The notes under the pieces: generated by a model
Told to the model about the DNA's origin: nothing
Databases searched by the model: none
What the model saw: only the letters and a program-made list of their open reading frames with translations
Translations under genes and position numbers: made by a program
NCBI GenBank assembly: GCA_043228905.1
Contig: JBHGNT010000010.1
Coordinates: 1,736,001-1,800,000 of the forward strand
Source of the DNA: Azolla caroliniana
Lineage: Eukaryota; Plantae; Polypodiophyta
DNA length: 64,000 nucleotides
Reading direction: 5' to 3'
Shown: positions 3,745 through 52,100 of the stretch, one piece after another
Position numbering within the stretch: position 1 is the first letter of the stretch
Layout of the letters: each line of letters starts with the position of its first letter

Positions 3745-3947
3745 CTCCCCCGTAATGGGCGTATACATGGGTTATCTAAAGAATTACAAGTATATATATA
3801 TACAAGGTTTATCGAATAGATCGGTTTTGTCAGAGTCGGCAAGATCCGAAGACAAAGGACCGAACCGGTCGGGTCGGAAGAGTTGAAGCCGATCCTCAGA
3901 GAACCGATGTTGGTGGTCCGAAACCATCTTGTGCTGTGTGTCCGACT

Positions 3948-27065: not shown

Positions 27066-30000
27066 CTAAGCACGTCTTGCAACGTCAGTCACAAAAGGGA
27101 AAAGAAGGGCTCGTCGTGCGTCACCAGAAAACCCATCAGAATAATTAAACTTCCTTTTGAAATCCAAGATACGTCTGGCCCCTTCATCATCACACTCTCT
27201 TATAAACCTCCTTCTCAGCTTTAAAGCAATGTCTTTGTTCACCGAAAAGCCAGCATCACACTGATAAAACATTTATGCATAAGAATCAAGATGTACCAGT
27301 ATTGAGATGTGAAATAAACTCACAACAGCATGCTCCATTCATAAACGTAATGCACACACATACCATTTGGTCTATTACTTCCATTGCAGATTTTGTATCC
27401 CGATTTACTATATGAGCCTTGATTAACAGATTGTAAGTCCTTTTGTCAGGTTGCAACCCAGAACCAGTCATGAATTCATATACCTTCAGAGATTCTGGAA
27501 CCTACAAAGACAAATTTGTTATCGATGAGTTAGAGAAGACGAATATGTATTGAAAGTTTCAAGAACTAGAAACTTTATTATTGATGAGTTTAGAGGAGAC
27601 CAATATGTACTGAGAGATTTCATATACTAGATATGACGAACCTTTTTCATTTTAGCAAACCCATCTATAAGAGCATTGCATGAATGCACATTAGGCATAT
27701 GGCCAAAAACACTCCTTATGGCTTCAAATGTTTGATAAGCACGATCAATATCCCATACATTCGAACAACCCAGAATGACACAATTGATGGCTGAAAGTGG
27801 GACCTGCTGTGTTGCAGCAATGCCTTCTAACTTAAAGTATGCCTGCATTCAGACCCAGAAAATGGACATCACCGTGTTAGATAAACACAAATGGAAACCT
27901 TCAAACAGGAGAAACACTCAAACAATAAAATATGAACAGAGCTATCCAGCAAACTTACAAACATAGGGGCTATATCATGCATGAGATGCACAAATATGAT
28001 AGTCCTACTCATATTATCAGTATGTATGTGTTAACGAAGAGAGTAAAAGAACTGAGTTTGCATAGCAATCAAGTGATTGGCACATAAATATGCAACAAAT
28101 AGCTCCCAAAAAACTCTCTTTTATATTCCTAGTCTGTTCAACTCAAAAGTGCAAATTTCGCTACCACATTATGTCTGGATATGAAACACATTAAATCACT
28201 AGAAACCAGGCTTCAATCACGTTAGAAATCCTACATGTCATAAAAATTAGTCTGGTAAATCAAATTTCAGCATAAATATAACTACATACTCGCATACAGC
28301 AATCTGCTGTATGTGCTGCTTAAATATATAACTAAATTTCTTAAACAAAGCAATGAACAGGAGTGCTCATTACCGCATCAAGAGTAGTGCTTCCACCTCG
28401 AGCGCAACCCAACACAAATGGCTTCAAAGAGGTGAACGGGCAAAAGACATCCGTACCAACCTCTGAGGCATAATCCTTCTCCATAGCTTGCAATGTTGCA
28501 ATTGCCAAATCAAGGTCTCCTCCGGTCACAGCTGCATGTAACCTTGCAAGGTAACAAGCCTCACTTGGAGGATTGGCTTGCTTCAATGAAAATAGAAGAA
28601 CATCCCATGCCTTGGTGGATAGCTGTAGATCGCCAGTTCTGGCGGCCATACTAAGAACTGCCAGTAGAGTACCCTCGTCTAGGGTTATACCCTTCACTAG
28701 CCTTCCTTTGCGTCTCCCAAACAACATATCTAATGCTACCAATGCACCCTCTGATGTATCCGTTTCTACACATGCCTGAAGAAGATCTCCTAAGGCTGTC
28801 ATTGATGGAAATGCATCTCGTTTCTGCAGAAAGAGAAAAATATAATGGCATCAGTCACATGCTAGCAAAATATTTTGAAACAACAGAATACGTGAGGCTT
28901 ACAAAATAAGTATTGAAGTGCATGTGCATAAGAAAGACAAAAGAGGCATACATCTACACAACATGAGAAGCCTATCAAGTTTGTCAACCACTTCATACCC
29001 TACTCTCGACATTAACACCTAAGGGTGTGTTTAGATTCATATAATAATATCCATATAAAGAAACAGTAAACACATAACAAACTACACTAAGCCTATTTTG
29101 TCTCCCAGTTTCACAAGAGATGCTGGTCATGTGTATGCACTATGTACCCAAACATTTATGGACGTTTTAATTGCATACAAATAATGTAGACAAAAATGTA
29201 AGAGGTCTTACCTGGGCCCATCTAACTAGGTCGGTTGCTTTTACAGCTTGACCAACTCTCGAGAAAGAACTCACAAGTTTACTTATAACTGCATCATCAG
29301 GGGAAAGGTCATTGGCAACCATTATACGCACATAATCCATGGCCTTCCATACATCACTATCTCCACGCAAAGCTGTAATTGCTTTGATGCACCATTCAGC
29401 TTGCATGCGTATTCCTAGCTCTTGGACACTGTGACAAATTATAGTTTTCGTAAGGATGCACAAATAACTATAAACACCATTTCTTGCTCCACATACCAAA
29501 CAGTCTTGAGCAAACACAAAGAGTTTCCTGGAGACTGAGTTATACACATAGGAAAGGACATAACTAAATATCATTTGTATAAATTTGTTTTGAATGTTGT
29601 GATTCAATGTTCCGCATAAGAACAAAGATATATCTTTATGTGAATATTCATGAGATGACTTTTTGAATAACTGCAATATTGTCATCATGTGAATAAAGGG
29701 TATTCATATGAAACATCATTTGCATTGGACGAACCTAGAAAAGATTCAAGTTGTACCATAGCGAAGGACTAACTCACAATAGGAATGAGAAAGAAATGGG
29801 GAAAATAGGAATGCAAAAAATATTCATCAAGAAATGTGTTGCACACAAGTTAACAGTATTTTCTATTTTGCATACGCTCATTATCATTTTGACGCTTTCA
29901 AAAATTCTGGACAAGCAAAATGATTCCCGTTCCCTTTAGGTCAACCACTGAAATAGAACTTCGCAATGCGACAATATGAAGTTTAAAACTTAGCGAAAGG

Positions 30001-30952
30001 TCATGACCACATTGAAAACTAATGTCTATTCTGAACTGACTCAAACAAAAGGCAGAACGGATTGACATTTCCCTTTAGCTCAGTAAAAGAAAACGAACTT
30101 ACCAATGCCACAGATAAGCAGTTTGTAAGTTCGCAAACTTCATGAAATTCTCACACATAGAGACATTCATTGCACTTACAGCGAAAATAGACGATCAAAA
30201 GCACCAAAGTCTTTACTATCTGCTGCTGCATTGAAGAGAACATAAAATGTATCCGTGTTTGGACTTAGACCAAGTCGTCTCATTTCTTCAACTCTCTTCA
30301 TTAAGATATCTACAGGTGCCCCTTTCAGACCCTCAGCTAGTAAAGCAATGTTGCAAGGGGTAACCAGAGGCTTGTTAGGCTGTCCAGTGATAGGATCGAT
30401 GCATTGCAACCACTCTCTATATATATCAATAGCCTCTTGAAACAACCTTTTCTTGATTCTTTCAGTCATTTCTTTGATTAAACCATGGATGCTTAAGGTT
30501 ACGCCAACAGGGGCAACTTGTACACCCCTACGAACTGTCGGCATTCCAGGGACGACTGGAGTTAAGGCATCTGTAGAGGAAGCAGCAGTACTCTCATCGA
30601 CATCATTAGAGGATTCAGTTGAAATTTTCTCCTCTTTAGCTTTACTTGCTGTAGAAGTTGATGATTCATTATTATTATTATTACCATTTTCTGAGGCGGA
30701 TAATTCATCAGATTCTTGCTGAGGAACCTGGGAAAGAGGAAAACTTGTGTGCAAATTTCTGTGATGTAGGAAGGCATTGCTTGATAGTAGCTCAGAAGAA
30801 GTAATGGGGTAGGAAATGATCGAATTCTCAGTGTATTTCAAGGGTACATTCTTGTGAGTGGTGCACTGTGAGGTCTGGAGAAATCTTCTTGCATCAGATC
30901 CATTGCTTCCCCTCCTGTGGAAGAGTCTGAGAAAAAGCCTCACACTTGACAT
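27066..30952 (-). CDS. Mitochondrial P-type PPR protein, At1g26460-like, ~657 aa. Exons 30952-30180, 29428-29212, 28823-28374, 27842-27642, 27501-27364, 27260-27066
   Basis: AINCVILGCSNVWDIDRAYQTFEAI, PDKRTYNLLIKAHIVNRD and LKLRRRFIRE match my recollection of At1g26460. Arg/Ser-rich N-terminal presequence. GT-AG phases are consistent. Confidence 0.85.
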
Positions 30953-31479
30953 TGCTTGAAGACCAACACTAAAACACCTGCTACAGCTACAGCTAGAGAG
31001 AGAAAGGTCGATGATCAAGTTCCTGCCATGGCCATTATCATCAGTACACATCATCGTCACATCACATTATCAATGTCAAACATCAACCACACTAAATGAC
31101 ATCAACGCCAACAACGTTACATCACACCATCGTATATCATCGCACATCAATCATCAACATCATCATTATCATCACCAGCATCCGCGCCATCTTCTTCTTC
31201 TTCTTCCTTCTACTTTCCCTCTTCTTCTTCTTCTTCTTCTTCTTCCTTCTTCACTCCCTCTCCTTCTTTCTCCTTCTTCCAAAACATCACAGAAGGAGGG
31301 GAGAACATCAGCAGAGTAAAAGGGAGGGGCATACCTGGATTTCGTTGCTATTGCTGCTCAGTTGAGCTTCCATCCGAGCGATGCTCTCAGCGATCTGTGC
31401 GAGCGCCCCAGATATGGTCGAAAGCAAAAATGGTACGAAAGAGATTAGGCCCTTCTTCTTCGCACTAGGGTTTATGGCC

Positions 31480-35300: not shown

Positions 35301-35671
35301 TGTTGTATGTATGGCTGGACTAGCCACAACACAGGTGTCTATCCGACACTTCTCCAAAGGGGTGGTAGGGATAGGATGTTAATACACGCGTATGATAATT
35401 ACACTTAAGCACAGACGAAGACAAGATTAATCAGCATAAGCAAAACTATATTAATTCTTCGCGCTTTCATTACAAAACATCGGATCCTTTTATAGGCATC
35501 CGGCCAGATTACAATCGGTGCTCGGCAGGCAACCGTTAACCGAAACCGAATCGGTTCGGATCCGGATCGGTTACAACTACCGGATCCGTCCCTCCTAATA
35601 ATTCTATTCCTATTTCTATATTTATCCGATCCGACCTTGCTTTCCCATTTGCCTTCTCTGACCGGCCAACA
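35301..35671 (-). repeat. Gypsy-1 3' LTR
   Basis: TG...CA, identical to 45134-45504. Confidence 0.97.
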
Positions 35672-35721
35672 CATGGCACGCCCGTGGGAAAGTGCATTGC
35701 ACTTCGAACCCACAGCCGGCT

Positions 35722-38637
35722 TCAGTCTTCCTCCAAATTATCAGGCAAACTCCGCTCCGAGGTTTCAAGTGTTGTTTTGCCTGTGCCGTCTCCGACGTCC
35801 GATTGGATTGGCTGCCTTTCCGCATCTTGCTGCTCCGACTCTGCTTCTACCGGTAGTACCGGTGTTTCTTCTGTATCCTGTCCGGGTCTGTCCTGCTCTA
35901 CCTCCGTTCCGTTCCCGGTTTCGCTCTCTCCGGTTTCCACTGGTTGTGTCCTTTCCTCCCCGGATTCGGTACTTCTCTGTCTCCACTCTGCATCACCCCC
36001 GGCATCAACCTGTTCTTGCTCCGGAAGTTCTTCCTCGGGTAATTCTTGTCGGGGTGCGTTGTCGGTTGGGTTCTCTTCAGCCGATCGCTCGCCCTCACTG
36101 ATGGAGATCGGCGTTGTGCGTCCCTCGGCTTCCTGTCGCAGTCGGTCCTTCTCGTACCCTTCCAATTCCAGTTGGGTTTCGAGCTGCCCGTCATCCAACC
36201 TCTCTACTAACCCTCGGATTTCCTTGAGATGCTCTTCTGCTAGGGCATAGAAATCCTCCGACAATTCTTCCCGGATGTTGACGATACTTTCTTCGTCCAT
36301 TTTATAGAACCCATCTCCGTTTTTCTTCCGATTTTCTGCATCAGCTCGGAGTATCTGCAGTTCAGCTGCCTGTTGTGCCCATTCCTTCCAGAGTTTCTCC
36401 GTGCTTTCATTTATGCTGGCCTGAGCTCGGGTACTCCAGCTTGACATGATGAACTTAATTCGGTCAACCCCTGCTTTAGCCTGTTCCGAGGCTGCTTGTT
36501 TTTCCTTCCTTATCCGTTTGATGATGTCGGCCATTAACTGAGCTTGAGCTTCAGAGTCGACTTTTTGCTTGTCACAGGTACTCCGCCATTTGTTGATTTC
36601 GAAAGTCGACTTCACTTTTTCCTCGTTCCAACTCTTTGTCAGCTCCCCTACTTTCTGCCGAAGTACTTCCATCTCTTTTCTTTGTTCCGACGTCAAGGTC
36701 TTCTCCACCGATACTTCTTCCCTTGCTTTGGACACTTCCAAGCGGTTTTCCTTGAGCTGCTCTTTCAGCTTTTCTATCTGTCGGTCGTACGTTGCTGCCT
36801 GATTCTTGATGTCCGACGTGGCCTGTTTATAATCCTTACATAGTCGGTCGAATTCCTCCGTCTTCTGTTTTAGGCGTCGGTTCGCCTGATCTCGCAACCG
36901 ATCATCCCGGTCCTTTTGTTGTCGGAGTTCCTCTCGCAACCGCTCAATTTCCTGCTCCATTCGTCGGCGCAGCCTATCTTTTTCCTTTTGCAGTGTCCCG
37001 TTTTCTTCTTGTAGTCGGTCATTGGTGGCTTTGCTTCGGCGAAGGCCTTCCTCCATTCGCCGTCTGTCGTCTTCTGCCAACTTCCGCTGTTCTCTTTCGT
37101 TATCTCTCAATGCCTCCTGAGCCTGTAATTCTTCTTTCAAAGTTTCTATTAACTTCTCGGTCTCAGGGCCGGTTTGCACGGCCTTCTCCGTTTCTGGTTC
37201 GGCTTGCTTTTCTGATGTCCCGACCGTCTCGGTGCCATCTTGTGCTTGTCGGCTGCCTTCTTTTGCCTGTGCTAGCTCTTCTTGCAGCTCATGTAATTGT
37301 GCCCGGAGCATGACCATATCTTTAGTCGTCGTCCTAGTTACTTGTTCTCTTTGCTCCTCCTCTTTCTCCATCTGGTCTGCTACTCCCGACAACTGCCCTG
37401 ACACCCACCTTAGCCATTGTGCCTTTGTTCTGCCTTCGTTGGTGTGAGCAGGCGTACCTAGCTCCGACTGTTTTTCCGGCTGTTTCTCCGGCCTCTTCTC
37501 CTGCTCCGGCGCTTGTTCCTTTCTTGGTTCTTCGAACTCCGCCGCCGTCGGTTCCGGTACTGCCGTCGTTGGTGCAGACGGACCCTCATCCTGTGTCGCT
37601 TCTGTTCCGGTTACTGGAGGCGGTTCTTTTGCCCGTTGCTGAGTTCCGTCCGCTGTTGGGGTCGGTCTTGTCGCTCGTTTCTCCTTCCCTTGCCTGGGTG
37701 GTAGTATTAACGTCGGTTCGGATGAGTCTTCCTCTGTTTCAGCGTCCTCCGTCGGTGCCACTATTGGTTCCTTTACTGGTACCGGTTCCGATTCGAGCGT
37801 TACTGGTTCGGTGTCGGTTTGCCTCTTGCTAGTCTTCTTTGCCAGCTTCTCTTTGCCTTTTTCCGCCTTTTTCTTCTTCATTGTCGGCTGCTGTTGCTGT
37901 TTCTGTGGCTGCCGTGATGGGCCTTCGTCCCGTTGCTGTCGGGATGAGTCTTCTTCCCGCGGTTGTCGAGCTGAGCCTTCTTTCCGCGGCTGTCGGGATG
38001 ATCCTTCTTCCCGCGGCGCTTCTTCTTCCTGTGTCCATCCTGGGGTGTGTTTCTCTAGTATTCGTCGGCGCTTCATGGTTTGCTTCGGGGTAGTCTCCTG
38101 CCGACTTCTTTGCTTGTGCTTGATGGGGGACACCGGTGGGACCAACACTGTTAACCATTGGGATATTCCGGACCATGGCTTCTTCCCTTCCACCAAGTGC
38201 TTGATCGCCTCTTTCAGTCCTTCGGTGATGAAGTGGAGCCAGTCCACCTGCAGGCCTTCGAATGTCGCGATGACGATCGCTGCTCGGTATTTGGCTATGG
38301 CTGCCGGACGAGGGTTCACGAACCCATACTCCATCAGGGCACGGGCCACCTCTCCGAACAGCAGGTCCTCTCCGCCCTGTGTGCGATACGCCTTGCTGCT
38401 GAGGGAATATTCGCCGAAATACTCGAAGAATATTTGGCTCGAGGGTAGCTCTATTGTTTGAAGTCCTCCCTCCGAAATCCCTGAAAGCGCTTGTACCGCT
38501 CCTTCAGTGACCTCTGCTAAGTCCACCGCTGTTGCCGCCTGCTCTGGTTCCTTGTGTGGTGGAGCGTCAGCGACCCGCAGCAGCCCTCCTAATCCGTTCT
38601 CCGTCAGCCATTGTCGCGCTCCGTCCGACAGTGCCAT
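35722..38637 (-). CDS. Gypsy-1 additional ORF2, ~971 aa: globular N-domain, basic disordered linker, long coiled coil, acidic tail
   Basis: Open frame of 1064 codons. The ATG at 38637 (MALSDG) is the first in-frame ATG after the TATA box. No signal peptide or transmembrane stretch seen. Confidence 0.85.
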   Translation of the reverse strand: MALSDGARQWLTENGLGGLLRVADAPPHKEPEQAATAVDLAEVTEGAVQALSGISEGGLQTIELPSSQIFFEYFGEYSLSSKAYRTQGGEDLLFGEVARALMEYGFVNPRPAAIAKYRAAIVIATFEGLQVDWLHFITEGLKEAIKHLVEGKKPWSGISQWLTVLVPPVSPIKHKQRSRQETTPKQTMKRRRILEKHTPGWTQEEEAPREEGSSRQPRKEGSARQPREEDSSRQQRDEGPSRQPQKQQQQPTMKKKKAEKGKEKLAKKTSKRQTDTEPVTLESEPVPVKEPIVAPTEDAETEEDSSEPTLILPPRQGKEKRATRPTPTADGTQQRAKEPPPVTGTEATQDEGPSAPTTAVPEPTAAEFEEPRKEQAPEQEKRPEKQPEKQSELGTPAHTNEGRTKAQWLRWVSGQLSGVADQMEKEEEQREQVTRTTTKDMVMLRAQLHELQEELAQAKEGSRQAQDGTETVGTSEKQAEPETEKAVQTGPETEKLIETLKEELQAQEALRDNEREQRKLAEDDRRRMEEGLRRSKATNDRLQEENGTLQKEKDRLRRRMEQEIERLREELRQQKDRDDRLRDQANRRLKQKTEEFDRLCKDYKQATSDIKNQAATYDRQIEKLKEQLKENRLEVSKAREEVSVEKTLTSEQRKEMEVLRQKVGELTKSWNEEKVKSTFEINKWRSTCDKQKVDSEAQAQLMADIIKRIRKEKQAASEQAKAGVDRIKFIMSSWSTRAQASINESTEKLWKEWAQQAAELQILRADAENRKKNGDGFYKMDEESIVNIREELSEDFYALAEEHLKEIRGLVERLDDGQLETQLELEGYEKDRLRQEAEGRTTPISISEGERSAEENPTDNAPRQELPEEELPEQEQVDAGGDAEWRQRSTESGEERTQPVETGESETGNGTEVEQDRPGQDTEETPVLPVEAESEQQDAERQPIQSDVGDGTGKTTLETSERSLPDNLEED

Positions 38638-38772
38638 CGCTTCTTCTTCGTTTGCTGCTGCCTGTGGTCTGAGGTCGGGGTGTAGGTGTTCTGCGCGTCG
38701 GATCTTGCTGTCTTGAGCTTGCGTTTGCTTGTGGGAAAATTCGTAAAAAGTGAACCCTTCCCCGGTTCTTCC

Positions 38773-39060
38773 TTTATATAGTGGCGTTTCCCGCGGGCCG
38801 CCTTTTCCTGTTTTTCGCGCGTCCCCTGCCATAATTAGGATGTCACTCTTTATTTTTTGACGGCTGCACGTTTCTGCCATAATTAGCATGTCACTTTTTA
38901 ATTTTGACGGCTGCACGTGTTCTGCCTAATTTTGGCGCCTGCGCATGCTGTGTCATGTATAGTATGTCTGTCCTTTGCTGCCGCGTGTCATGCTTGCGTT
39001 TCTTTGCCGCGTGTGTCGAATCTCCTACGTGTCTGTCATTATGACTCCTTGATTGCCGCA
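38773..39060 (-). promoter_or_regulatory. Putative internal promoter of ORF2: TATA box, four E2F sites and a 48-bp duplicated element
   Basis: TATATAAA (minus) 38780-38773; TTTCCCGC 38787; TTTCGCGC 38813; TTTGGCGC 38931; TTTGCCGC 39003; 48-bp tandem 38826-38930 with TGACG and CACGT. Confidence 0.7.
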
Positions 39061-39211
39061 CGTATTAAGTCCTGTACCTCGGCGCCCCCACGTTCTGTGC
39101 TTTAAATAGCTCGTGCCTCCGTGTGACGGTTGTAACTACCTCCTTCATCATTACCATGATTTTCTTGATCTTCTTGTCTTGAATTCTCTTGACCGTAACA
39201 CCACGTCATCA

Positions 39212-39222
39212 TTTTTTCTTTT

Positions 39223-39275
<53 letters not shown>
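39212..39275 (-). repeat. Poly(A) tract in element sense (A51 plus GA5GA6) directly after the gag-pol stop
   Basis: Pure T run 39225-39275 on the + strand. Confidence 0.9.
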
Positions 39276-39277
<2 letters not shown>

Positions 39278-39288
39278 CATAAGCCGCA

Positions 39289-42200
39289 TCATTGTTCGGT
39301 TTCCCCCGATGTGTTCGGGTCGGTGCGCACTGTTGTCGGTTCCTCGTCGTTGTTACGCGTTGGTGTCGGTTCCTCGCCATTCGGGTTTTCCGGGTCTTGC
39401 TTGAAGGGGTTAGCTGGCATGTGCCCCTTATACGGTTTTAGGCGAAACCCATTTGCCCATTTGCCCACAACTTCTCCTGACAACGTCCCGAGCTGGTAAG
39501 ACCCATTGTACTCCTTTGTGATCCAGAATGGTCCGGTCCACCGAAATCGCAATTTCCCTGGCATGCTCCCCATCCTTGTCTGGAACAATAATACAGGTTT
39601 CCCGACCCCGAATTCCTTTTCGTTACCGCGCCGGTGTCGGTCTACAAAGGCTTTCCTCCTCCTTTGCTCTAGTTCTAGCTGTAGTAGGCTGGCTATTCGA
39701 TTTTCTTCCAGTTCTAACAGCATCTTCAGCCGGATTCGTTCGGATTCCTTCTCGCTTAACCGCTCCTTAACCTGTATTCTTAAGCTAGGAATTTGGAATT
39801 CTACTGGCATGACTGCTTCCAAGCCGAATGCCAGTCGGAACGGGGTCGTCCGGATGCTAGTCTTGTACGCCGTTCGGTACGCCCACAGTACGCTCTGCAA
39901 CTTCGTGTCCCAGTCGGTCCGGTTCTCATTGACGATTTTTCTAAGGATGTTCTGTAGCGTTTTATTCGTTGATTCCGCTAATCCGTTGGCTTGAGGGTAG
40001 TAGGGAGTGCTTCGTTTGTGTACTACCGCATAGAATGATGTCAAACTTTCCACCACCTGCCCGAGAAAATGTCCTCCCTGGTCACTGATCAGCTCAATCG
40101 GGCATCCGTACCGACACCATATGCATTCATATAAAAATTTGGCCGTGGACGCCGCCGTGTTGTCCCGTAGTGCCTTTGCTTCTACCCATTTGGTGCAGTA
40201 GTCGGTAGCCACTATTATATACCGATTTCTGGTCCGCATTGCCGGTGGCTTAAAGGGGCCGACAAAGTCTAAGCCCCACTTTTGGAATGGTTCTAATGGC
40301 AAGACCGGGTGATGTGGCATCCGGGCCTGCTCCGTGGGTTGGCCCAGTCGTTGACACAGGTCGCATTCCCTGCTATACTTAACGGCATCTCTCATGGTAG
40401 TCGGCCACCATAGTCCGCTCTGCCATATCTTCCGGGCTGTTGTTTCGCCGGCATAATGCCCGCCTGCAATTCCACAGTGGGCTTCCCTCAGGATCAGATC
40501 CTTTTCATCGCTCCGCACTGCTCGCCTCCATACGCCATCTGCCCCCTTGTGATAGAGGGTGTCTCCTACCAAGCAAAAATGTCTGCTCCGTACTGCCATC
40601 CTCTTCCGTTCGTCTCGGTCCAGGTTTTCCGGGGGAACTCCGGTGCTCAGGAACTGATGCATTTCGGTTAACCATTTGTCTTCGTCCGCTACTGTGGTCT
40701 CCGTTGCCGGTGTCGTCGTGACCTTAAACAGCTCGGCGTCGGGAAATTCGTCCTGCACGCCGTCCCCTGATTCTCCGGATTCTAGTCTGCTCAGGTAGTC
40801 TGCTACCGCATGCTGCACCCCGGGTCGGTGGAAAATGTCGAATTCGAATTCCTGTAATAGCAGCGTCCACCGTGCGAGTTTTCCTGTCAGGGCTGCCTTT
40901 GAGACCAGGTACAGTAGTGCCGAGTGGTCAACGTGGAAGGAGAACTTTCGTCCGAGCAGATAGTGCCTGTACTTTGTGACGCTGTACACCATTCCTAATG
41001 CCTCTCGTTCCGTTGTAGAGTAGTTCCGTTCGGCTTTCGAGAGTTTCCTGCTTGCGTAGTACACCGGCCGATACCATTTCGGTTCCGTGAGTTGCATCAA
41101 AACGCTGCCGATTGCTACGTCCGACGCGTCGACGAAGACGTGAAAGCTTTTACTCCAGTCCGGCGGCTGCACCACCGGAGCTTGTGACAGCATGACCTTC
41201 AATGCTTGGTAGGCTGCCTCCTCCGTTTCTGTCCATTGGAAAGGTACTCTATGTACAGCAGCATGCAATGGTGTTGCAAAGTCGGCAAGGTGCCGTATCA
41301 TCCGACTATGCCACCTTATTTGACCAAGGAATCGGCTTAAAGCTTTTGCGCTATTCGGTGCCGGTGCGTCGAGAATTGCTTTTACCTTATCCGGATCTAC
41401 CGCGATTCCTTCTCGACTCACCACGTGGCCTAACAAATTGCCGCTTGCGACTCCAAAGACGCACTTAGCCGGGTTCAGACTTAATCGGTACTCGCGGCAC
41501 TTTTCTAAGCATAGTCGTAGGTGATCGAGATGCTCTCCGTGTCGGCTGTAGACGGCGAAATCGTCTAGGAAGACCTGCATAAAACCGGGAATAAAATCCC
41601 CGAAGATTTCCATAATTATCCTTTGAAATGTTGCAGGGGCTGTCTTTAATCCGAACATCATCACGACGGCGACGAACACTCCCCATTCCGTCACGAACGC
41701 TGTTTTCTCTTGGTCGGCCGGGTTCATTCGGATTTGGTTGTAGCCGCTGAATCCGTCCAGGAAGCTGTAAACTTCGTGGCCGGCCACCGCATCTAGCACT
41801 CCGTCCGTGAATGGTAGTGGAAAAGCGTCGGTCACTGTCGCGGCATTTAGTTTCCTGTAGTCCACACATACCCGGATTTTACCGTTCTTTTTCGGGACCA
41901 CCACTATCGGGCTTAGCCAGGTTGCCTGCTTGACTGGTCGGATAAATCCGACCCGGAGAAGCTTGTCAATTTCCTCCTTCACCTTTGCCGCATAGTTTGG
42001 ATTCATCCGGTACCGACGTTGAGTGATGGGTTTCGCGTCAGTACTTAGATGAATTTGGTGCTGGTAGAGCTGGGGGTCCAACCCTCGCATGTCTTCGTAT
42101 GACCATGCGAACACGTCCTTGAAATCCGTTAACAGTGCTACCATTGCCTGTTTTTCCTCCTTCGGCAATTCCTTCGCGACTTTTACCGATCGGGGTTGTT

Positions 42201-45081
42201 CTGTTGTGCCGAGGTCCACCTCTTCCAGCTGAGATGCTTTCACCCTTTGGGATATCGTCATTTCTCTTTCTAGGGCTTCCTGTGCTTGGCGTAGTTCCCG
42301 GATCGCCACTTTGTCCGGCTCGTCCGGCATTGTGATGTACGGTTCTACTGCTGCCGTGATATCCACCTCAAAAAGTGGGACGATCTGTGGGTGTTCCTCG
42401 AGGTACCGATCAACTTCCTCATCCGGTAAGCCCTGCAACATGTTGATGCTTTCGGCATATAAAGGGGTTGCCTCCTTGCTAGTGAGCACCCGTGGTTGCG
42501 TGGCTACCCGTACCTTTGTTTTCCCTCGTCGGAACGTGATCATATTCTTTTGCCAGTTTTGCTTGATATGCGCCGTTCGCAGCCATGGTCGTCCTAACAG
42601 TAGGGGATATGCGCCTTGTACATTCAGCTCTAGTACCACGGCCGATATTCGGAATACGTGGCCTCCTATTGTCACTTCCAAGTCCCGGATAAGACCAGTT
42701 GGTCGGACTGAGCTTGTATCCGCCATGCGTAACCAGAAGGGGCATGGTTCCCACTCCTGGATGCCTAGGTCGTCGCATGTTTGTAGACTAATGACGTTCA
42801 CCCCGGAGCCTCCGTCAATAATTGTTCCTGGGATCTCCTTTCCTTTGACGATTGTCGTGATTGCTGGGCTACTGGTATCAACCACCGCTGGGCCTTCCTC
42901 TGGGTTGGAGAAAAATGCCGGTGCCGGCATCGGCGTCGGTTTGCTCACGGCGGCTTGTAAGTCTGCTGTAAACCGCGGCACCAACTGCAGTAACCGTGCC
43001 AACGGCAGCACGATCTGACAATCTTGTAGTGCTTGCCATGTCGGGTTTTCTCCTGGCTGTACGATTTCCTCCTCCCTTGGCATCTTTTGGTTTCTTACTT
43101 CCGCCGCACCTTGTTCGTTGGCTTCTTTGATCCATTGTGCCGCTTGTTTTCTGATTGCTTCCTGGGCTTCCCATTCGGCGGCCTTCCCCTTCGACCGCGT
43201 GGTAACCTGCTGTACTTCAGCTGTCACCATGTTGACTGTTGGCTGCTTGTCGGCTGTTTTGCTTGGGCATTGATTACTGTAATGCCCTTCTTTTCGGCAG
43301 TAATAACAGTACACCCTGTGCGTGTTGCTGGATTCTCCTTTTTCCCATGTTTGGGGAAGGGGCATTCCCCGGCTGTTGTCCTCGGTTTTTCGGTTCTCCG
43401 GTGCCGCTACTGGTTTGTCATTCCTCGTTGCCTCCCGACGCTCCTCTCTACGGAAGAATCCACGCCTTTGGTTCCGTCGGAAATTCCGGTTCCCTGGCCG
43501 CCTTTCTTCTCTGCGTCGCTCGTATTCCGGGGATTCGTCTCGGTCGTACCGGTCCCGGGGGTAGCTATCCCTTCGGTTCTCCTCTCGGTCGTACCGGTCC
43601 CGGGGGTAGCTATCCCTTCGGTTCTCCTCTCGGTCGTAGCTGTCGCGTCTTCTATCGGGGTATCTGTCGCCGCGTTCTCGTCGGTAGCGGTCGTCCCTCC
43701 GGAATCGATCCTCTTCCGGGTCCCGATTGCGCGGTTCTATGTGTCGGACCGGTGCCGCTTGTCGAGTTAACAGATTATACTCGCATTGGTTCGTTGTGTG
43801 GGCGCGAGAATTGCATATCATACACTGTGCGCGCAGGGTGCAGTCAACGGTCGAGTGCCCTGAATTTAGGCATGTTGTGCATTGTAGGGCTTGTCGGAAC
43901 CGGAGGTCCTCCTCCTTCGGAAGCGCCTGGTGTAACGCCCCCATCGGCAAGAAGGGGCTCGTGGTGTCCATTTCCAGGACCCGATCAATGACTTGGTCCA
44001 TTGTGCTGGTGCTGAAATCGATGATTCCACACATCGCTCGAAGTGGGTCTTTTAATGCAGCCAAAAAGACTGCCTTGGCCTCCTCTTCGGGTGGTGCTCT
44101 TGCTAATTGACTGTGCAAGGTCTGGAAACGAATGATAAATTGTGGGACCGTCTCGTTTTCTCCCTGCCGAGTGGTGTAGAATTGTCCGACCAATTCCCTT
44201 TGTTCCACTCGTCTATGAAACAAGCGTAAAAACTGGGTTTTCAATGCCTCGAACGTGGCGAAGCTGCCTGGTAAGTGCTTGTCGTGCCACCGGGCCGCCG
44301 GTCCTTCTAATGTCATGCCGAATTCGGCGACTTTGGATCGGTCGGCCTCGGCCTCCGTCAGTCTCTGGGACACGTGGTTGGCTTCCCATGTTCGCAGGAA
44401 TGCATACACATGTGCCTCTCCGTCGGGCTCATCCCGATACTTTGGGTACGGATACGGCATCGTGTCGTCCCACTGATTCTCCTGCGCTGGTTCCTCCGAT
44501 GTCGGTCTCCGCTCGTGCGGTTCCTCCGCAGGTGGTGTTGGTATCCGCTCCTGCGGTTCCTCTGCGGGTGGTGTTGGTATCCGCTCCTGCGGTTCCTCCG
44601 CGGGTGGTGTTGATATCCGCTCCTGCGGTTCCTCCGCGGGTGGTGTTGATAACCGCTCCTCCCTCCTCGGCGATTGCCGGTCACCGAACTCCCGAGTTAG
44701 TTCTTCCTCTGGCTCCGATGTGGCTGAGTGATCCGACTCAAAGGGGTTGTTCCCGTGGCTGCTTTTAGAGCGGGATCCCACGCTTTCCCCGCTATCCGAA
44801 TCCGCCTCTAATGTTGCAAATGCCGCTGCGTCCCCGTCGCCGCCAGCGAGAGTCTGTAGTAGTGTCTCCGCTTCTTGGAGGCTGGTTATGCTACTGCCTT
44901 CGTCGGAAGCTTGTAGAACCTGGAACTGCAGTGCGTTTTCTGCGATTTGCCGAAGCGTTGTTGAGAATGACCGATCGCTCCGGATCTCGTCGACGGCTTG
45001 CTGCAGGGCTTCCCGTCGTCGCTGCCGTTCGGCGTGGCGTCTCCCTCTTTCGGTGATGTGGTCGTTATTTTGTCTAGACAT
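39289..45081 (-). CDS. Gypsy-1 gag-pol polyprotein, single frame, ~1930 aa
   Basis: Capsid; three CCHC knuckles; protease IIDGGSGVN; RT (LDGFSGYNQI, VFLDDF); RNase H (VDASD..ERNYSTTERE); integrase (HHCC, WGLDFVG, SDQG, QANG.AE, GPF). No chromodomain. Confidence 0.97.
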   Translation of the reverse strand: MSRQNNDHITERGRRHAERQRRREALQQAVDEIRSDRSFSTTLRQIAENALQFQVLQASDEGSSITSLQEAETLLQTLAGGDGDAAAFATLEADSDSGESVGSRSKSSHGNNPFESDHSATSEPEEELTREFGDRQSPRREERLSTPPAEEPQERISTPPAEEPQERIPTPPAEEPQERIPTPPAEEPHERRPTSEEPAQENQWDDTMPYPYPKYRDEPDGEAHVYAFLRTWEANHVSQRLTEAEADRSKVAEFGMTLEGPAARWHDKHLPGSFATFEALKTQFLRLFHRRVEQRELVGQFYTTRQGENETVPQFIIRFQTLHSQLARAPPEEEAKAVFLAALKDPLRAMCGIIDFSTSTMDQVIDRVLEMDTTSPFLPMGALHQALPKEEDLRFRQALQCTTCLNSGHSTVDCTLRAQCMICNSRAHTTNQCEYNLLTRQAAPVRHIEPRNRDPEEDRFRRDDRYRRERGDRYPDRRRDSYDREENRRDSYPRDRYDREENRRDSYPRDRYDRDESPEYERRREERRPGNRNFRRNQRRGFFRREERREATRNDKPVAAPENRKTEDNSRGMPLPQTWEKGESSNTHRVYCYYCRKEGHYSNQCPSKTADKQPTVNMVTAEVQQVTTRSKGKAAEWEAQEAIRKQAAQWIKEANEQGAAEVRNQKMPREEEIVQPGENPTWQALQDCQIVLPLARLLQLVPRFTADLQAAVSKPTPMPAPAFFSNPEEGPAVVDTSSPAITTIVKGKEIPGTIIDGGSGVNVISLQTCDDLGIQEWEPCPFWLRMADTSSVRPTGLIRDLEVTIGGHVFRISAVVLELNVQGAYPLLLGRPWLRTAHIKQNWQKNMITFRRGKTKVRVATQPRVLTSKEATPLYAESINMLQGLPDEEVDRYLEEHPQIVPLFEVDITAAVEPYITMPDEPDKVAIRELRQAQEALEREMTISQRVKASQLEEVDLGTTEQPRSVKVAKELPKEEKQAMVALLTDFKDVFAWSYEDMRGLDPQLYQHQIHLSTDAKPITQRRYRMNPNYAAKVKEEIDKLLRVGFIRPVKQATWLSPIVVVPKKNGKIRVCVDYRKLNAATVTDAFPLPFTDGVLDAVAGHEVYSFLDGFSGYNQIRMNPADQEKTAFVTEWGVFVAVVMMFGLKTAPATFQRIIMEIFGDFIPGFMQVFLDDFAVYSRHGEHLDHLRLCLEKCREYRLSLNPAKCVFGVASGNLLGHVVSREGIAVDPDKVKAILDAPAPNSAKALSRFLGQIRWHSRMIRHLADFATPLHAAVHRVPFQWTETEEAAYQALKVMLSQAPVVQPPDWSKSFHVFVDASDVAIGSVLMQLTEPKWYRPVYYASRKLSKAERNYSTTEREALGMVYSVTKYRHYLLGRKFSFHVDHSALLYLVSKAALTGKLARWTLLLQEFEFDIFHRPGVQHAVADYLSRLESGESGDGVQDEFPDAELFKVTTTPATETTVADEDKWLTEMHQFLSTGVPPENLDRDERKRMAVRSRHFCLVGDTLYHKGADGVWRRAVRSDEKDLILREAHCGIAGGHYAGETTARKIWQSGLWWPTTMRDAVKYSRECDLCQRLGQPTEQARMPHHPVLPLEPFQKWGLDFVGPFKPPAMRTRNRYIIVATDYCTKWVEAKALRDNTAASTAKFLYECIWCRYGCPIELISDQGGHFLGQVVESLTSFYAVVHKRSTPYYPQANGLAESTNKTLQNILRKIVNENRTDWDTKLQSVLWAYRTAYKTSIRTTPFRLAFGLEAVMPVEFQIPSLRIQVKERLSEKESERIRLKMLLELEENRIASLLQLELEQRRRKAFVDRHRRGNEKEFGVGKPVLLFQTRMGSMPGKLRFRWTGPFWITKEYNGSYQLGTLSGEVVGKWANGFRLKPYKGHMPANPFKQDPENPNGEEPTPTRNNDEEPTTVRTDPNTSGETEQ

Positions 45082-45133
45082 CCATCCCCCGGTTGTCCTC
45101 TGCACTCTGCAGGAATCGTGGTCGCCAAAATAG

Positions 45134-45504
45134 TGTTGTATGTATGGCTGGACTAGCCACAACACAGGTGTCTATCCGACACTTCTCCAAAGGGGTGGTA
45201 GGGATAGGATGTTAATACACGCGTATGATAATTACACTTAAGCACAGACGAAGACAAGATTAATCAGCATAAGCAAAACTATATTAATTCTTCGCGCTTT
45301 CATTACAAAACATCGGATCCTTTTATAGGCATCCGGCCAGATTACAATCGGTGCTCGGCAGGCAACCGTTAACCGAAACCGAATCGGTTCGGATCCGGAT
45401 CGGTTACAACTACCGGATCCGTCCCTCCTAATAATTCTATTCCTATTTCTATATTTATCCGATCCGACCTTGCTTTCCCATTTGCCTTCTCTGACCGGCC
45501 AACA
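45134..45504 (-). repeat. Gypsy-1 5' LTR
   Basis: Followed on the minus strand by a 6-nt spacer and the PBS; TATAAAAG inside. Confidence 0.97.
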
Positions 45505-48500
45505 TCCTTCATGTCTTTCGTTTCGAATTGGTCGGAGAATAGCTTTTTGATATGTTTGATATATGCTAAATGCTCTCCTCCAATGTCCAAGTCATTCACA
45601 TATATTAGGATAAATACTTGTCCTCTGGAGTCACTCTGGATGAACAAAGAATTGTCGGACTTGTACATTTTAAAGCCGATTTGGTGAAGATATTGGGCTA
45701 TCTTCAAATGCCATGCTCTAGGTGCTTGCTTGAAGCCGTAGAGGCTTTTTAATTCGGCAAACAGCAGTCGGATGCATACTCAACTTTAATCCCAAGTGGT
45801 TGTACCATGTACACCTCCTCATCTAATTTGCCTTGGAGAAAGGCGTTCTTGAAGTCCATTTGATGGAGGTGTCACCCATTTGCTACTGCAAGCACAATCA
45901 CAGTTCGAATGGTAGTCATCTTTGCCACCGGTGCAAAGGTCTCTTCATAATCAACCCCATGTGTTTGCGCATACCCTTTTGCCACGAGCTAGGTCTTATA
46001 TCGATTGACAGTGCCATCAACATTGTGCTTCACCTTGAATATCCACCGACACCCGATTGCCTTTTGGTGGGGTGAAGGGGGAACGAGATCCCATGTCTCG
46101 TTTTTGGAGGGTGCTTGCATCTCCTCATTCATCGCTTCGACCCATCATGGGTCTTTGTGGCTTCGGAAAAAGTTTTTGGCTCTCGGATTGTCGCCACCTT
46201 CATCATGATTGCATAATGATATGCCATGTGGTCGTTGTAGCCGAATCAGATGAATATGTTATTCTCTCGAGTGGACCGACGTGGTTGTTCACTTGTCTTC
46301 GTGAACACTTTCTCGACTCCTCGTATCCTCATGATAGGCACATCCAATTCACCATACTCACTGTCGAGTTGGTGAGCCGATTTGTTTCCATCGGAGGCTT
46401 TGTACTCAAGCATTTTGACCTTCCCTTTGTCCAATTTCGGACTTGGCCATGACGTGCTTTGGTCACTTGGAGGCTCTTGCGGTCCACTCAACTTGGTTGA
46501 GATTGGACTTTCTTTTGGTGTGAGCCTCAGTTGATCATCCTCCTCTGAGTCTATTTTGATTGGGTTAGATAGAGCTGAGTTGACTGTGTACCAGGATGCT
46601 AATTCATTGAATACAACATCCATACTCACTCATACCTTCTTGGTAGAGGGGTTGAAGCACTTATACCCCTTTTGTTCGAGCGAGTACCCAAAAGGATACA
46701 ATTCTCCGATTTTGGATCGACCTTTTGTCGCTTTTCATTCTTGATGTAGGTTTGGTTGCCCTCTTCGCCAAAAGGGACATTTATGACATGCTGAATAGGG
46801 TGGGTTGTGTCATCCCCTATTTCCACATAGCTGGGTCGTTCGAGTTTTTGCAATTCTCAAAACCAAACATTATGAGACGTCAGATGATTGGATGCACCCG
46901 AGTTGACAAACCATACATTTTCCGAGTTGGAGGTGTTTGTACGATATTGTCATCAAATTCACTCTATGTCACATCATGAACATTCTGCCACGATCGTTGT
47001 AGTCGGAATTTGAGGCATAGTTAGTAAGTTGTCAGCTTGTGAAGGCTGGCTGGCTCTTCTTCTTCTGACACTCTGCCCCGTAGTGGCCAAATTTGCCATA
47101 GTATCCACATTGGACGGAGTTGTTTTGTCGGTTGGGTTTGGCATTATTGCTCCTCTTTCTTCCAGACATACAACCTCGCGTGTTTGCAACGTCTTGTTAG
47201 TAGTAGAAGTTCTATTCGCAGGGTTGTTCTTGGTTGTGATGGCCTTGGCCGACTCAACCTCTTCTTCCACGACTTTGTCCCCTTCCTTCATCCAAGTTCG
47301 AATAGAGCATTTGTCCTTCTTGCACATTGCTCTTTGTTCGAACGTGATTTTCTTCGACCGGTAGCATATTATATCCCGCGGTGAGAATTTACCGTAGTAT
47401 TCTATACACGTGGATAAGTGTGAGGGTTAAATGAGAGTGTAAAGAAGGGGAGGATTACTTTTAATCCTCGGGATTGAGACAACCTGTTAGGCCAAGTGTG
47501 AACTTGCCTGGGGGTCTTGGGTATCACTATAAATATGAAGCCTAGCTACCCTCATTTCATCATATCTTGACTACGTCGAGACTCTGTTTCGTGGTGGGTC
47601 AACTCTTGTAGTGAGTCCGCCAACACCAGGTACGACTCAACGTCACGACAATGGTATGGGATGCCGATCGAGGCTCGAGTCCGTCTCGATCCCTTTGCTC
47701 GGGGGTGGTCGGGTGGATCGACACCCTTCTTTCTCTCTCTCTCTCTCTCCTTTCTATCAATCTATCTTTTATCCTTATCATATGCTTACTTTAGATCATA
47801 ACTTTAATAGTTGGTATCAGAGCTTATGTTTCTAATGTTTCCTTTGTTTGTTTTTGTCTTCTTGATGGATGGTGATCAATCGATGTGCGGTCGACCTTGA
47901 TCCAGATGGCGATCAACAAAGGAACATATTTGATCGTATATGTGTGATAAATATACATATGTCTATGTTAGTTATAACGTAATTTCTATTATTATCGAAT
48001 GTTGTCCTTTTCAGGGAAAGGATCTTGGTGACTGTCCTCACATTTTTGTGAGAATGGCATAGTCATCATCCTTTTTTCAACAATCTTTTTTATTGACATC
48101 CCCGTTGGTCACTTCAATTTTGTTACGTAATGAAACGATCATAGCCACAATGATGGTGAGAATGTAGGGCTTGACCCACTTCATGTGAGGTCGCTCCTAG
48201 GACACACATATCCAACATCCTTCCCTCACTACATGGATACAATGCCACCATGAGATCATTCTTACGAAAGGCATTCGTAATGACGTAACCATGTAATGGG
48301 CCACGTGGACCTACTATGAAAAGAGGGCTCATTTGGCTTGACCATTAGGTTACACTTTGGCATATGCCATCATAATTATGAGACTTGAGGTTAGGTAATG
48401 TACCAACATAGTTTGTGGTAAACGAGTGGGAAATAAGGACTCTTGACATATGTGTTTCTTTTTAAAAAAACATACATGAGCAAATGCCTCGCATATCTCT

Positions 48501-49130
48501 TGTACGCATAAAACATTAAACATGCAACACGAGCAACCTATTTGGTTAGCTCAAGTGTTTAATGTATTTGTTCTCGAGGTCTCGAGTTCAAATATGACCA
48601 AGACCATACAACATTATTGATACATATGACTATAATACATGTTTAGACTTTAGGTCTAAGTGCACTTCGAGGTCCTCGTAATAGGACTTAAAGAGCCAAC
48701 ATTATTGATACATATGACTATAATACATGTTTAGACTTTAGGTCTAAGTGCACTTCGGGGTCCTCGTAATAGGACTTAAAGAGCCGAAACCACATACGTG
48801 GGCACAAAAACATAGTTTATTGTTAACATTTTTTTCGTGTATAAACTATTCATGACACGAACATACATGGTTGAGCCTCGGGGAGCCGCCATGAAAAAAA
48901 TTGATATAGAGATTAGGGAAAGACATTCATTTGTCACCCCCATGGTTTTTAAAACACCTTTGTGTTACCATAGTAACCTGATCTTGAACCTCATCTCATA
49001 CGTCTAGAGGGGTATTGACGTGAGATTATGATATGGATTAATGTTGGCCCATGATATGTTTACATCACGACTTGATGTTATGACTATTTGTCTGACCTTA
49101 TCCTATTTCTTTGCCAGAAATAATCATTCA

Positions 49131-52100
49131 ATGGCTCAGAATAACGACCCGATGTCATCCGCTCAAGCGGAAGGAACTTGAGGAAATCCTCTTGGAGCAA
49201 TCTCCATTGAGTCGTATTTCTTACACATACAAAATTTCCTTAATTCAACCGCTCATCAGATGTCCGAACTTCTGCAATCTCAAAGTGCTCTCGAGGCATG
49301 TGTCATTAGTTTACAACGTGACTCTAATAGACCCGATGAGCGTCAGGGTGAACCATCATTTGTCGTAAAGCCATTTACGGGAGAAAAAAAGGAAAGAACC
49401 AAAGAAGCAATCTGCACGTGGTTGGGCTAATGGGAGTCTCATTTTGTGCTCTATCCTATGCCAGATAGTACAAAGATTGCATATGTCGGCCGAGAACTAG
49501 GGGGTAAGGCTGCCGCCTGATGGTGTGGGCTCCGAACTTTGGGGAAATTGCCTGATACCTGGACAGATTTTGTCATAGTTTTTAAGGGCCAAATTTTGCA
49601 ACCTCCCTCTCAAACCGAGGCAACACAAGCTTTAATGAACTTCTCTAGTAGGAAGTTTTCCTTGCTAGAAGACTATGTTCACCATGCTCGAACCCAAATC
49701 CAAAAATCGGGTCTAGAAGGGGACAATTGGTTGATAGCTTGTTTTGTCAATGGCATTCCCAATTCGGACTATCACTGGATAATACATGATAAGGATCCAA
49801 AATCCTTCGAACAGGTCGTTGAAATAGTTCTTCGCTATCAACGCACTTCGAAGAAGGATCATAACAAACCCAACGAAGCACACGGGACTAAGCAATCGCA
49901 ATTCGCTAGGAAACGCAAGACACCCAACGAATTCGTGGATTGTGATTGTAAGCGACAACATCCTTTTTGCGTATTCTGTAAAAAGAAGGGTCATACAAAA
50001 GAACAATGTCGAGAGCTCCAACGGAAAGAGCACGGCAACAAAGCAAAAGTTGTAGACCATAAAGGTTAGATTCCTAATGTCCTTGAGGTCTATACGCCTC
50101 ATTTAAATAATTGTGAATGTTCTTTCCCTCACTATGTATTGGGACCCAATGATTTACTACGTGCAAACGGGTATGTCAATGGATCTCTCGTACAATTTTT
50201 GTTTGATTTGGGAAGCTCACACAATTTTGTGAATGATTGTCTGGTTCATATATGGGGAATCCAACCCATCGTAAGTGATCACACCTATAGGGTGCACTTG
50301 GCTGATGGAAGAGTACAATACATCAACGGGGCGATTCATTCATTAGGAATTTCTATTGATACTTATGTAGAGGAAGTAGACTTCCATGTAATGAATCTTT
50401 GTACCACTGATGTAATACTAGGTTATCCCTGGTTTTATAATAAAAACTTTTCTTTGTCTATTGATTGGGTTCGTCATTCCATTTCCTTTGTACTAAACAA
50501 TTGTACTCATTTTATTCAAGGTGTAAATAAACAATCCCTTTCGATTGTTTCCTCTCCATCAATATTTGAGTTATCTTGTTCTTCTTTATTTTATTGTGTA
50601 CTTGATCCGAACATTCATGTTACAATATTGATAACATCTCAGGTCAATTGACATATTTTGAACAACAACAACTCAATAAAATCTTAAATGATTTTCATGA
50701 TGTTTTTCCGAGTGAACTACCACATGGGTTACCTCCTAAACATAATATAGACCATCGTATAGATATAATTTGTACCTGGCGTTGCACCAATAAGTATACC
50801 TCCTTATCGCTTAAGTCGATCCGAAGAGGATGAGGTATCTAAGCAACTCAAGGACTACTTACGAATGGGTTATATATGTTATAGTAAATCTCCATGGGGT
50901 GCACCTGTTCTCTTGGTAAAAAAAGAAAGAGGGCACATGGCGTATGTGTATTAATTATCGACGCTTGAATAAAGTGACAATCAAGAATTCATATCCATTG
51001 CCCTGGGATGACGATCTAATTGACCATCTCCAGGGAGCTCGGTATTTTACGAAACTTGATCTCCGTACAGGCTACCATCAAATTCGTATAAGTGAGGACG
51101 ATGTTCCTAAAACGACATTTCGTACGCGTTATGGCCATTATGAGTTTTTGGTTATGCCTTTTGGTTTGACCAATGCTCCGAACACATTTCAACAAGAAAT
51201 GAATGACATTTTCTGAGAACAACTTGGAAAATTTGTCATTATTTTCTTGGATGATATTCTAGTTTATAGTCATACATTAGGAGAACATGCTAAACATGTC
51301 TGTTTTGTTTTGCAAACATTGCGCGATAAGCAATTCTATGAGAAGATCTCAAAATGCGAGTTCTTCAAGAAATCAATTACTTATCTTGGACATCTCATAA
51401 CCGAACGAGGAGTTGAAATTGATCCTTCTCGCATCGAGAAAATCAAACTTTGGCCTACTCTTCGGAATATTCGAGAAATTCGATCATTCCTTGGTTTTGT
51501 CGGGTTTTTGCGAAATTCCCTTTGTAATTACTCCCAATTGACGATGCCGTTTACTGATCTTCTAAAAGGTCAAACACGTAAGTCTACAAAACCTATTGTG
51601 TGGAATGCTACACTAGGCCTCGCCTTTAAGGAACTCAAGGACCTGGTGTGCAAGGCTCCTTCGCTTCTTTTACCTGATCCTTCAAAACCTTTTGAAGTTG
51701 AAACCGATGCAAGCGATTATGCTATAGGTGTTGTCTTATATCAAGATGGTAAACCAATAACATTCGAGAGTAAGAAACTTGATTATGCTCAATCTCGGTA
51801 TACGGTTCAAGAAAAGGAATTATTTGCAGTTATACATGCGCTCAAAAGTTGACGCCTTTATCTTTATGGAAATCTTTTTGTGGTAACTATGGACCACAAG
51901 TCCTTGAAATATTTTTGTGACCAACAAAACCTAAAAGGTTGTAAGGCACGATGGGTTGAACATTGTCGAAGTTGCATCCGTGAAGTTAACATGCTTAGCT
52001 TCACTGAAATAACATCAAATCTTTATGATCACCTTCGAGGAAAGTATCTTGTGTTAGGAAATAGGTCCCTCCAGATGGGAAGTTGAGAAGAACCGTGTTG

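Follow-up and report, generated by a model that had tools for sequence, protein, structure and literature searches.

We found that an intact Ty3/gypsy long terminal repeat (LTR) retrotransposon of the fern Azolla caroliniana carries, besides gag-pol, an extra open reading frame (ORF), ORF2, whose product very probably contains, as judged from predicted structures, a domain with the VANC21/plant mobile domain (PMD) fold. The element lies in a stretch of 64,000 nucleotides (assembly GCA_043228905.1, contig JBHGNT010000010.1, positions 1,736,001 to 1,800,000 of the forward strand), hereafter called the window, in which position 1 is the first letter. ORF2 is under purifying selection, comparable to that on Gag, and is situated in the sense orientation between pol and the 3′ LTR, i.e., in the position and orientation of env, as recognized in a preliminary description of the window made from its letters alone. 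Among the three functions offered there, namely anti-silencing, integration tethering and chromosome attachment, anti-silencing would fit best. We tentatively favor, with somewhat less than even confidence, the reading that ORF2 would encode a nuclear, oligomeric chromatin factor of the PMD/VANC type, which is anti-silencing or trans-activating for its own family.

Predicted Fold of the N-Domain

The globular N-domain of about 170 amino acids (aa), already delimited in the preliminary description, was modeled with AlphaFold as a mainly helical structure with a mean pLDDT score (the predicted value of the local distance difference test) of 83.7, most 10-residue blocks of the core reaching 85–97. 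When this model was compared with 48,161 chains using VIA-align, VANC21 was the top match (Z 5.8–5.9, root-mean-square deviation (rmsd) 3.7, 164 residues), and the next row had a Z of 2.8 over 72 residues. A second AlphaFold model, that of the relative P0021, 35% identical to the window N-domain, gave the same top match, over 171 residues at Z 6.5 and rmsd 3.6, followed by a row with a Z of 4.1 over 69 residues. VANC21 was the sole match at Z ≥ 5 for both models, and was aligned over nearly the whole domain. Foldseek, run on the window model against 350,542 chains, also placed VANC21 at the top, with a TM score of 0.38 as compared with 0.18 or less for the others, at an E value of 3.4, which is not significant. 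The language-model neighbors of the N-domain were Transposase_32, ATHILA, PMD and DUF1985 at 0.80–0.82, values below the trust level of 0.9 that serve as leads only. Since these individually weak lines converge, and since the VANC21 match covers the whole domain, we regard the assigned fold as highly likely.

Several observations weigh against this assignment. ORF2 did not match PF10536 (PMD), PF20167 (Transposase_32), PF03078 (ATHILA) or PF09331 (DUF1985) in Pfam at E ≤ 1, nor did the 125 alignment members match PMD, Transposase_32, ATHILA or DUF1985 at E ≤ 0.5 in the 25 of 37 families listed. The likeness to PMD and Transposase_32 domains that the preliminary description had suggested was supported by the predicted fold of two models, and not by sequence profiles. 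The VANC21 scores lie within the range that the tool terms "common" (Z < 8), at an identity of 8–10%, and the window and P0021 models have most of their alignment rows in common. VANC21 was not listed by Foldseek for the P0021 model, so that the proposed check by AlphaFold and Foldseek spoke for the fold by rank in the window model, and neither by E value nor in the relative. The N-domain profile showed no meaningful match to the sequences of solved structures. Searches of the own genome with PF20167 and PF10536 also found nothing, and say little, because the controls were equally silent. When 1.84 billion proteins were searched without a profile, 182 relatives of the N-domain were found at E ≤ 0.001, all unnamed, and a profile search for longer homologues returned 11 unnamed proteins, none of them belonging to an annotated genome.

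Organization of the ORF2 Protein

The following parts were distinguished in ORF2, all on the minus strand.

35722–38637: ORF2, with 971 aa if counted from the conserved start; the frame is open up to 38889
38122–38640: globular N-domain, aa 84–256; predicted VANC21-like fold (compared with the DNA-bound chain, residues 304/306–533)
38062–38121: candidate bipartite basic patch KKRGR/KQRSR...KR, resembling a nuclear localization signal (NLS); conserved, directly after the N-domain
37907–38017: four 9-aa repeats in a disordered linker (27-nt unit, 4.1 copies); the number differs among relatives
37255–37434: conserved helical segment of 60 aa, QWLRW...
36112–37164: proline-free charged rod of 351 aa (aa 576–926), predicted coiled coil
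36115–36489: strongly conserved C-module, QAAEL...RAD.ENR...FYK, at the C-terminal end of the rod
35725–36114: acidic tail with a net charge of −30, ending in LDIL(E/D)E(E/D) in most relatives and degenerate in this copy

Residue numbers (aa 84–256, 518, 576–926 and 666–698) count from the first ATG of the longer frame, which extends ORF2 upstream by 84 codons. In the same numbering, the conserved residues of the N-domain include H112, K166, K200 and K236. Because the ratio of nonsynonymous to synonymous differences (pN/pS) in aa 20–83 of this extension was 0.68–0.85, with intervals that include 1 and hence no clear selection, and because distant relatives of ORF2 begin at a methionine matching 38637, this position, the start adopted in the preliminary description, is likelier than 38889.

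All of the parts named in that description were recovered where it had placed them, including the four repeats and the acidic tail. Both basic stretches, KRRR (38062–38073) and KKKKAEKGKEK (its KKKK at 37867–37878), lie where they had been placed; KKKKAEKGKEK is not conserved among the relatives, however, in contrast to the bipartite patch, which is the conserved basic signal. The approximately 400 aa of heptads correspond to the 351-aa rod together with the 60-aa helical segment, a figure that proved somewhat generous; a crude heptad score flagged only the windows that begin at aa 518 and at aa 666–698. The LDIL-type terminal motif is retained even in relatives that are about 38% identical in the N-domain, and could be a candidate host-binding site. 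In subfamily A, to which the window copy belongs, the motif has drifted (LDIL, LDNL or PDNL; PDNL in this copy, 35725–35760, minus strand), while most other copies and relatives have LDIL.

The basic patches and the long rod would also suit a trafficking or particle helper of the Rev/Vpr type, which exports unspliced RNA, imports the complementary DNA (cDNA) complex or scaffolds particles. CERV is said to be a nematode precedent for such a role, and similar roles have been proposed for the extra ORFs of plants (PMC7264820). We consider this explanation rather improbable, as structural comparison yielded a single match, to a DNA-bound protein with an anti-silencing function, and an RNA-binding fold was not found.

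An envelope or cell-to-cell movement protein is suggested by the position and orientation of ORF2, and coiled coils occur in Env (PMC4408406; here and below, statements on published systems follow the cited parts of the sources). The highest 19-residue Kyte–Doolittle mean in ORF2 is 1.31, which is too low for a membrane helix and falls within the globular domain; neither a membrane segment nor a signal peptide was found by hydropathy, which was used without a dedicated predictor. ORF2 has only three cysteines, and its N-domain had no match in a viral structure library at E ≤ 0.001. Since no hydrophobic segment is present, we agree with the preliminary description that ORF2 is not an envelope protein, and an envelope or movement function appears extremely unlikely.

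Subfamilies, Linkage and Selection

Among the best 150 scored of 4,569 candidate matches to ORF2 in the own genome, 85 were 92–100% identical (subfamily A) and 65 were 71–75% identical (subfamily B). Counted by hand, an open frame of at least 1000 aa together with a stop-free match was present in 46 of the subfamily A matches. Three further subfamilies (C–E) were found by searching with distant relatives, ORF2 of subfamily E being about 25% identical to that of this copy. Of 40 loci in subfamilies A–D, 39 have ORF2 in the sense orientation downstream of pol, the exception (L085) having no pol match, and so do all 12 loci of subfamily E. The LTR pairs of 20 subfamily A copies are 97.6–100% identical, indicating that this subfamily is young.

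The preliminary description had proposed the ratio of nonsynonymous to synonymous substitution rates (dN/dS) among copies as a check, and the values were far below 1 in the structured parts. Between subfamilies A and B (means of 137–140 pairs), the core had a dN/dS of 0.11, the rod of 0.09 and the C-module of 0.07, and the linker and tail reached about 0.5; as gag-pol references, the Gag capsid had 0.11 and reverse transcriptase (RT) 0.03. The copies compared had been chosen for a single frame (34/40 in the case of ORF2 and 18 in that of gag-pol), and any pair whose dS was saturated was excluded. Single-pair pN/pS was 0.12–0.26 in the structured parts of ORF2, with bootstrap 95% intervals below 0.4 in three comparisons. 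Stops in old copies also hit gag-pol: the full ORF2 frame was present in 3 and the full gag-pol frame in 1 of 52 older subfamily B copies, so that both genes decay. The share of intact copies in subfamily A was set aside, because its 40 loci were chosen by frame length. The A–B synonymous distance was about 1.9 in the rod (36490–37164), 1.0–1.1 in the core and C-module and 0.5–0.7 in pol; the higher values in ORF2 than in pol hint at an exchange of ORF2 modules between lineages.

Region Upstream of ORF2

Three features were found between pol and the conserved start of ORF2, on the minus strand.

39212–39275: A-rich tract directly 3′ of the pol stop; A-rich in every subfamily shown, of variable length
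39101–39108: TATA-like box CTATT[TA]A[AT]A, conserved across five subfamilies; candidate internal promoter
38826–38970: degenerate tandem array of 45–48-bp units upstream of the conserved ORF2 start; speculative candidate target of ORF2

The TATA-like box was present in 16 of 17 loci of subfamilies A–D and in 10 of 12 subfamily E loci. Since the A-tract and this box follow the pol stop and are common to five subfamilies, they suggest a putative internal promoter driving ORF2. An antisense orientation of the box is consistent with subfamily C and not with D or E, and we therefore tentatively prefer the sense orientation. An internal promoter has been reported for the antisense gene of Grande (PMC7264820).

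The array had 3–4 units in 40 of 40 subfamily A loci, 1–2 units in 50 of 52 subfamily B loci and none in 20 loci of subfamilies C–E. Its motif was defined after the fact, from subfamily A, so that its lack in other subfamilies is partly expected. The pol–ORF2 spacer (38960–39060, minus strand) also contains a CACGYGGCA-type motif, found in 28 of 29 loci of the five subfamilies, as a possible site for a host transcription factor; we take this motif to be G-box-like.

Proposed Role in Countering Silencing

In 52 subfamily B copies, C-to-T changes amounted to 0.035–0.041 at CG, 0.029–0.033 at CHG and about 0.007 at CHH positions (in pol, ORF2 and LTR), a difference of about 5-fold. The element family thus appears, from this decay, to be methylated by the host, and there would be silencing to counter. 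In the mechanism that we propose, ORF2 would be transcribed from the internal promoter behind the A-tract, and its product would enter the nucleus via the basic patch and oligomerize by the rod, as modeled for VANC and the Athila domain. The N-domain and the basic tail might then bind short sites in the non-coding DNA of the element, either in the U3 part of the LTR or in the array upstream of ORF2, and the acidic tail and terminal LDIL motif might bring in activating or demethylating factors of the host, with effects in trans on the sister copies. The young family with its intact copies makes localization, binding and effects on methylation directly testable.

This role is modeled on published systems. 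VANC21 has been reported to bind motifs in non-coding parts of its own element and to remove methylation, and the targets of VANC proteins are described as short motifs in non-coding tandem repeats, differing between families (PMC5735166). The DUF1985 domain of VANC is reported to resemble the PMD of MAIN/MAIL1, and VANC and the Athila domain have been modeled as coiled-coil oligomers (PMC13547354). Host PMD-C proteins are reported to oppose Polycomb silencing at DNA motifs (bioRxiv 2024.09.27.615353).

A number of results speak against such a role. In 41 subfamily A and 52 subfamily B copies, CG and CHG decay was even along the element and did not dip at either the intergenic region or the LTR, although this test is weak because silenced copies would not express the ORF2 factor. 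Dispersed over-represented 7–9-mers were not found in 8 elements of five subfamilies, and the non-coding DNA of the element is short, unlike that of VANDAL. The N-domain core has a net charge of −8, which is unusual for a DNA-binding domain. Furthermore, a shared fold does not determine function, as MAIN/MAIL1 are reported to promote the silencing of transposable elements (PMC5418596).

The last point also bears on a self-limiting or general chromatin factor, which would compact or repress chromatin in the manner of MAIN/MAIL1, or act on host genes without family specificity. MAIN/MAIL1 are described as having the fold of VANC and acting in silencing (PMC13547354, PMC5418596), and both the lack of family-specific motif saturation and the CACGYGGCA-type intergenic motif, which is common to the subfamilies rather than divergent, are in line with this possibility. 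The recent amplification with intact ORF2 (20 subfamily A copies) fits a benefit to the element instead, and the acidic tail looks activating; we regard a general chromatin factor as quite unlikely.

Returning to an anti-silencing role, a more specific proposal is that ORF2 would be a sequence-directed anti-silencing protein with the VANC/PMD fold from a non-seed gypsy lineage, binding the variable array before its own gene. We hold this proposal to be doubtful. If it were true, the fold would have served retrotransposon counter-defense long before flowering plants, and MAIN/MAIL, the Athila "env" and VANC would all be its descendants. Targeted epigenome editing would also profit from a second class of such sequence-directed anti-silencing proteins.

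Architecture and Lineage of the Element

The element itself comprises the following features on the minus strand.

35301–45504: intact Ty3/gypsy LTR retrotransposon, 10,204 bp, with a 5-bp target-site duplication (TCCTT) on each side
45134–45504: 5′ LTR, 371 bp, TG...CA, 100% identical to the 3′ LTR
45115–45127: primer binding site of 13 nt, complementary to host tRNA-Arg(TCG) at its 3′ end, including CCA
39289–45081: gag-pol, a single frame of 1930 aa with Gag, zinc knuckle, protease, RT, RNase H and integrase (Pfam)
35301–35671: 3′ LTR, 371 bp, identical to its partner

Neither a chromodomain nor a second (archaeal-type) RNase H was among the Pfam matches of gag-pol, which has the RT-linked RNase H only. 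The nearest named relatives of its RT–RNase H region are from Riccia (49–51% identity), Adiantum (48–49%) and Marchantia (48%), in comparison with about 33–43% for angiosperm proteins. In a tree of 55 RT–RNase H rows, 1 of which was dropped as too short and none of which was a labeled clade reference, the element joined the rows of fern and liverwort origin (95/94); their sister group consisted of angiosperm rows, which we took to be Athila-like, and rows bearing a chromodomain fell outside the clade of the element.

The element differs from chromoviruses, which have a chromodomain after integrase, and from the Tat clade (TatI–III, Ogre and Retand), defined by a second RNase H in pol (PMC6317226), which Pfam did not reveal here. 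Phygy and Selgy are described as short elements whose polyprotein approximately fills the internal region (PMC6317226), whereas the present element has a 3-kb extra ORF, a comparison made on layout.

The lack of a chromodomain in pol is compatible with an integration tether, in which the N-domain would read host chromatin, while the pre-integration complex would be held by the rod, which is of suitable length, or by the acidic tail. By eye, many of 37 subfamily A 3′ flanks resemble coding DNA of other transposons, and flank GC was mostly 0.42–0.60, as compared with about 0.35–0.40 in the non-element parts of the window. The target duplications show no sequence preference, however, with 36 different 5-mers among 37; selection against insertions near genes would likewise lead to nesting, the window copy is about 4 kb from a host gene, and no fold link to a known tether was seen. 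A tethering function is therefore unlikely in our judgment. In one subfamily A copy (L155), the 3′ flank suggests an apparent insertion in or beside a tRNA-like sequence.

Comparison with Known Extra ORFs

The function of env-like and other extra ORFs of plants is a long-open question (PMC7264820), and the origin of the PMD, in hosts or in gypsy elements, has been stated to be fully open (PMC5418596). A selected gene with the VANC fold in five subfamilies of a fern/liverwort-allied lineage would favor an old transposon origin, and would point to a nuclear rather than an envelope role.

VANC21 of VANDAL21, a Mutator-like DNA transposon of Arabidopsis (PDB 9LNJ/9LNK; PMC5735166, PMC10398659), is likewise a transposon accessory gene product. 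It shares with ORF2 the predicted fold over 164–171 residues, and in both proteins the conserved domain is accompanied by a coiled coil and by variable, disordered regions that contain repeats. Unlike VANC21, ORF2 is encoded by an LTR retrotransposon with compact non-coding DNA lacking motif saturation, is 8–10% identical to VANC21, and is known from sequence and models. VANC has been described as dicot-specific (PMC13547354), whereas ORF2 occurs in a fern/liverwort-allied lineage. ORF2 may work like VANC, yet it is not a VANC by membership. MAIN, MAIL1 and MAIL2 (host PMD-C) are angiosperm host genes and not, like ORF2, genes of a retrotransposon; their reported likeness to VANC provides an indirect link to the N-domain, by description only.

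In Tat lineages IV and V (Ogre-type), which are non-chromovirus gypsy elements, the extra ORFs are reported to encode a PMD followed by a coiled coil (PMC4408406; PMD-A clades, PMC5418596), an arrangement similar to that of ORF2. These ORFs are described as lying 5′ in sense or 3′ in antisense orientation, in elements that have a second RNase H, and as matching PF10536 (PMC4408406), whereas ORF2 lies 3′ in sense orientation, has no Pfam match and belongs to an element for which Pfam gave no second RNase H. The earliest Tat lineages and Tat-like elements of mosses are reported to lack extra ORFs (PMC4408406). The extra ORF of Athila (PF03078/PF20167) is described as 3′ and sense, as is ORF2 (PMC11728184, PMC6317226), and that of sunflower Athila as having a Transposase_32 match and a predicted NLS (PMC11728184). 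In contrast, ORF2 has no match by hidden Markov model, is about twice as long, and has a 350-aa rod, and its element stands apart from the angiosperm rows. PMD, Transposase_28 and ATHILA domains are reported to mark the extra ORFs of Ogre, Retand and Athila (PMC6317226), those of Retand being described as antisense with predicted DNA binding (PMC11963269). We found no report in the literature of a VANC-fold extra ORF in a gypsy element of non-seed plants (supplementary lists of extra ORFs lay outside the scope). What is already known is the PMD plus coiled-coil extra ORF of Tat elements in seed plants; the link to VANC and the occurrence in a non-seed lineage are new.

The tRNA-Like Sequence Preceding the 3′ LTR

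The segment from the ORF2 stop to the 3′ LTR lacks a polypurine tract, the expected position of which is occupied by the following feature.

35674–35714, minus strand (sense): copy of host tRNA-Arg(TCT), limited to the 3′ part, which includes CCA and is interrupted by a hairpin

The CCA ends two bases before the 3′ LTR, and the copy was found in all five subfamilies. In 77 of the 87 loci in which the junction was found (100 examined), the 18 bases preceding the 3′ LTR are identical, and subfamily E has a close variant. This arrangement suggests that the plus strand may be primed by a tRNA-type signal; we found no description of such a signal in the literature.

LTR Palindromes and Genomic Setting

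The LTR U3 part (35530–35580 and 45363–45413) contains a palindromic GATCCGGATC cluster that is common to subfamilies A–D, and a similar position in the subfamily E LTR is taken by an inverted repeat that differs from it. The element is situated about 4 kb upstream of host gene fragments in several frames (28341–31054, minus strand), which presumably derive from a gene for a pentatricopeptide-repeat protein with an organelle leader. Two pairs of direct repeats, at 3446–8953 (about 300 bp, 96%) and 47365–54556 (about 440 bp, 91%), probably represent older LTR elements.

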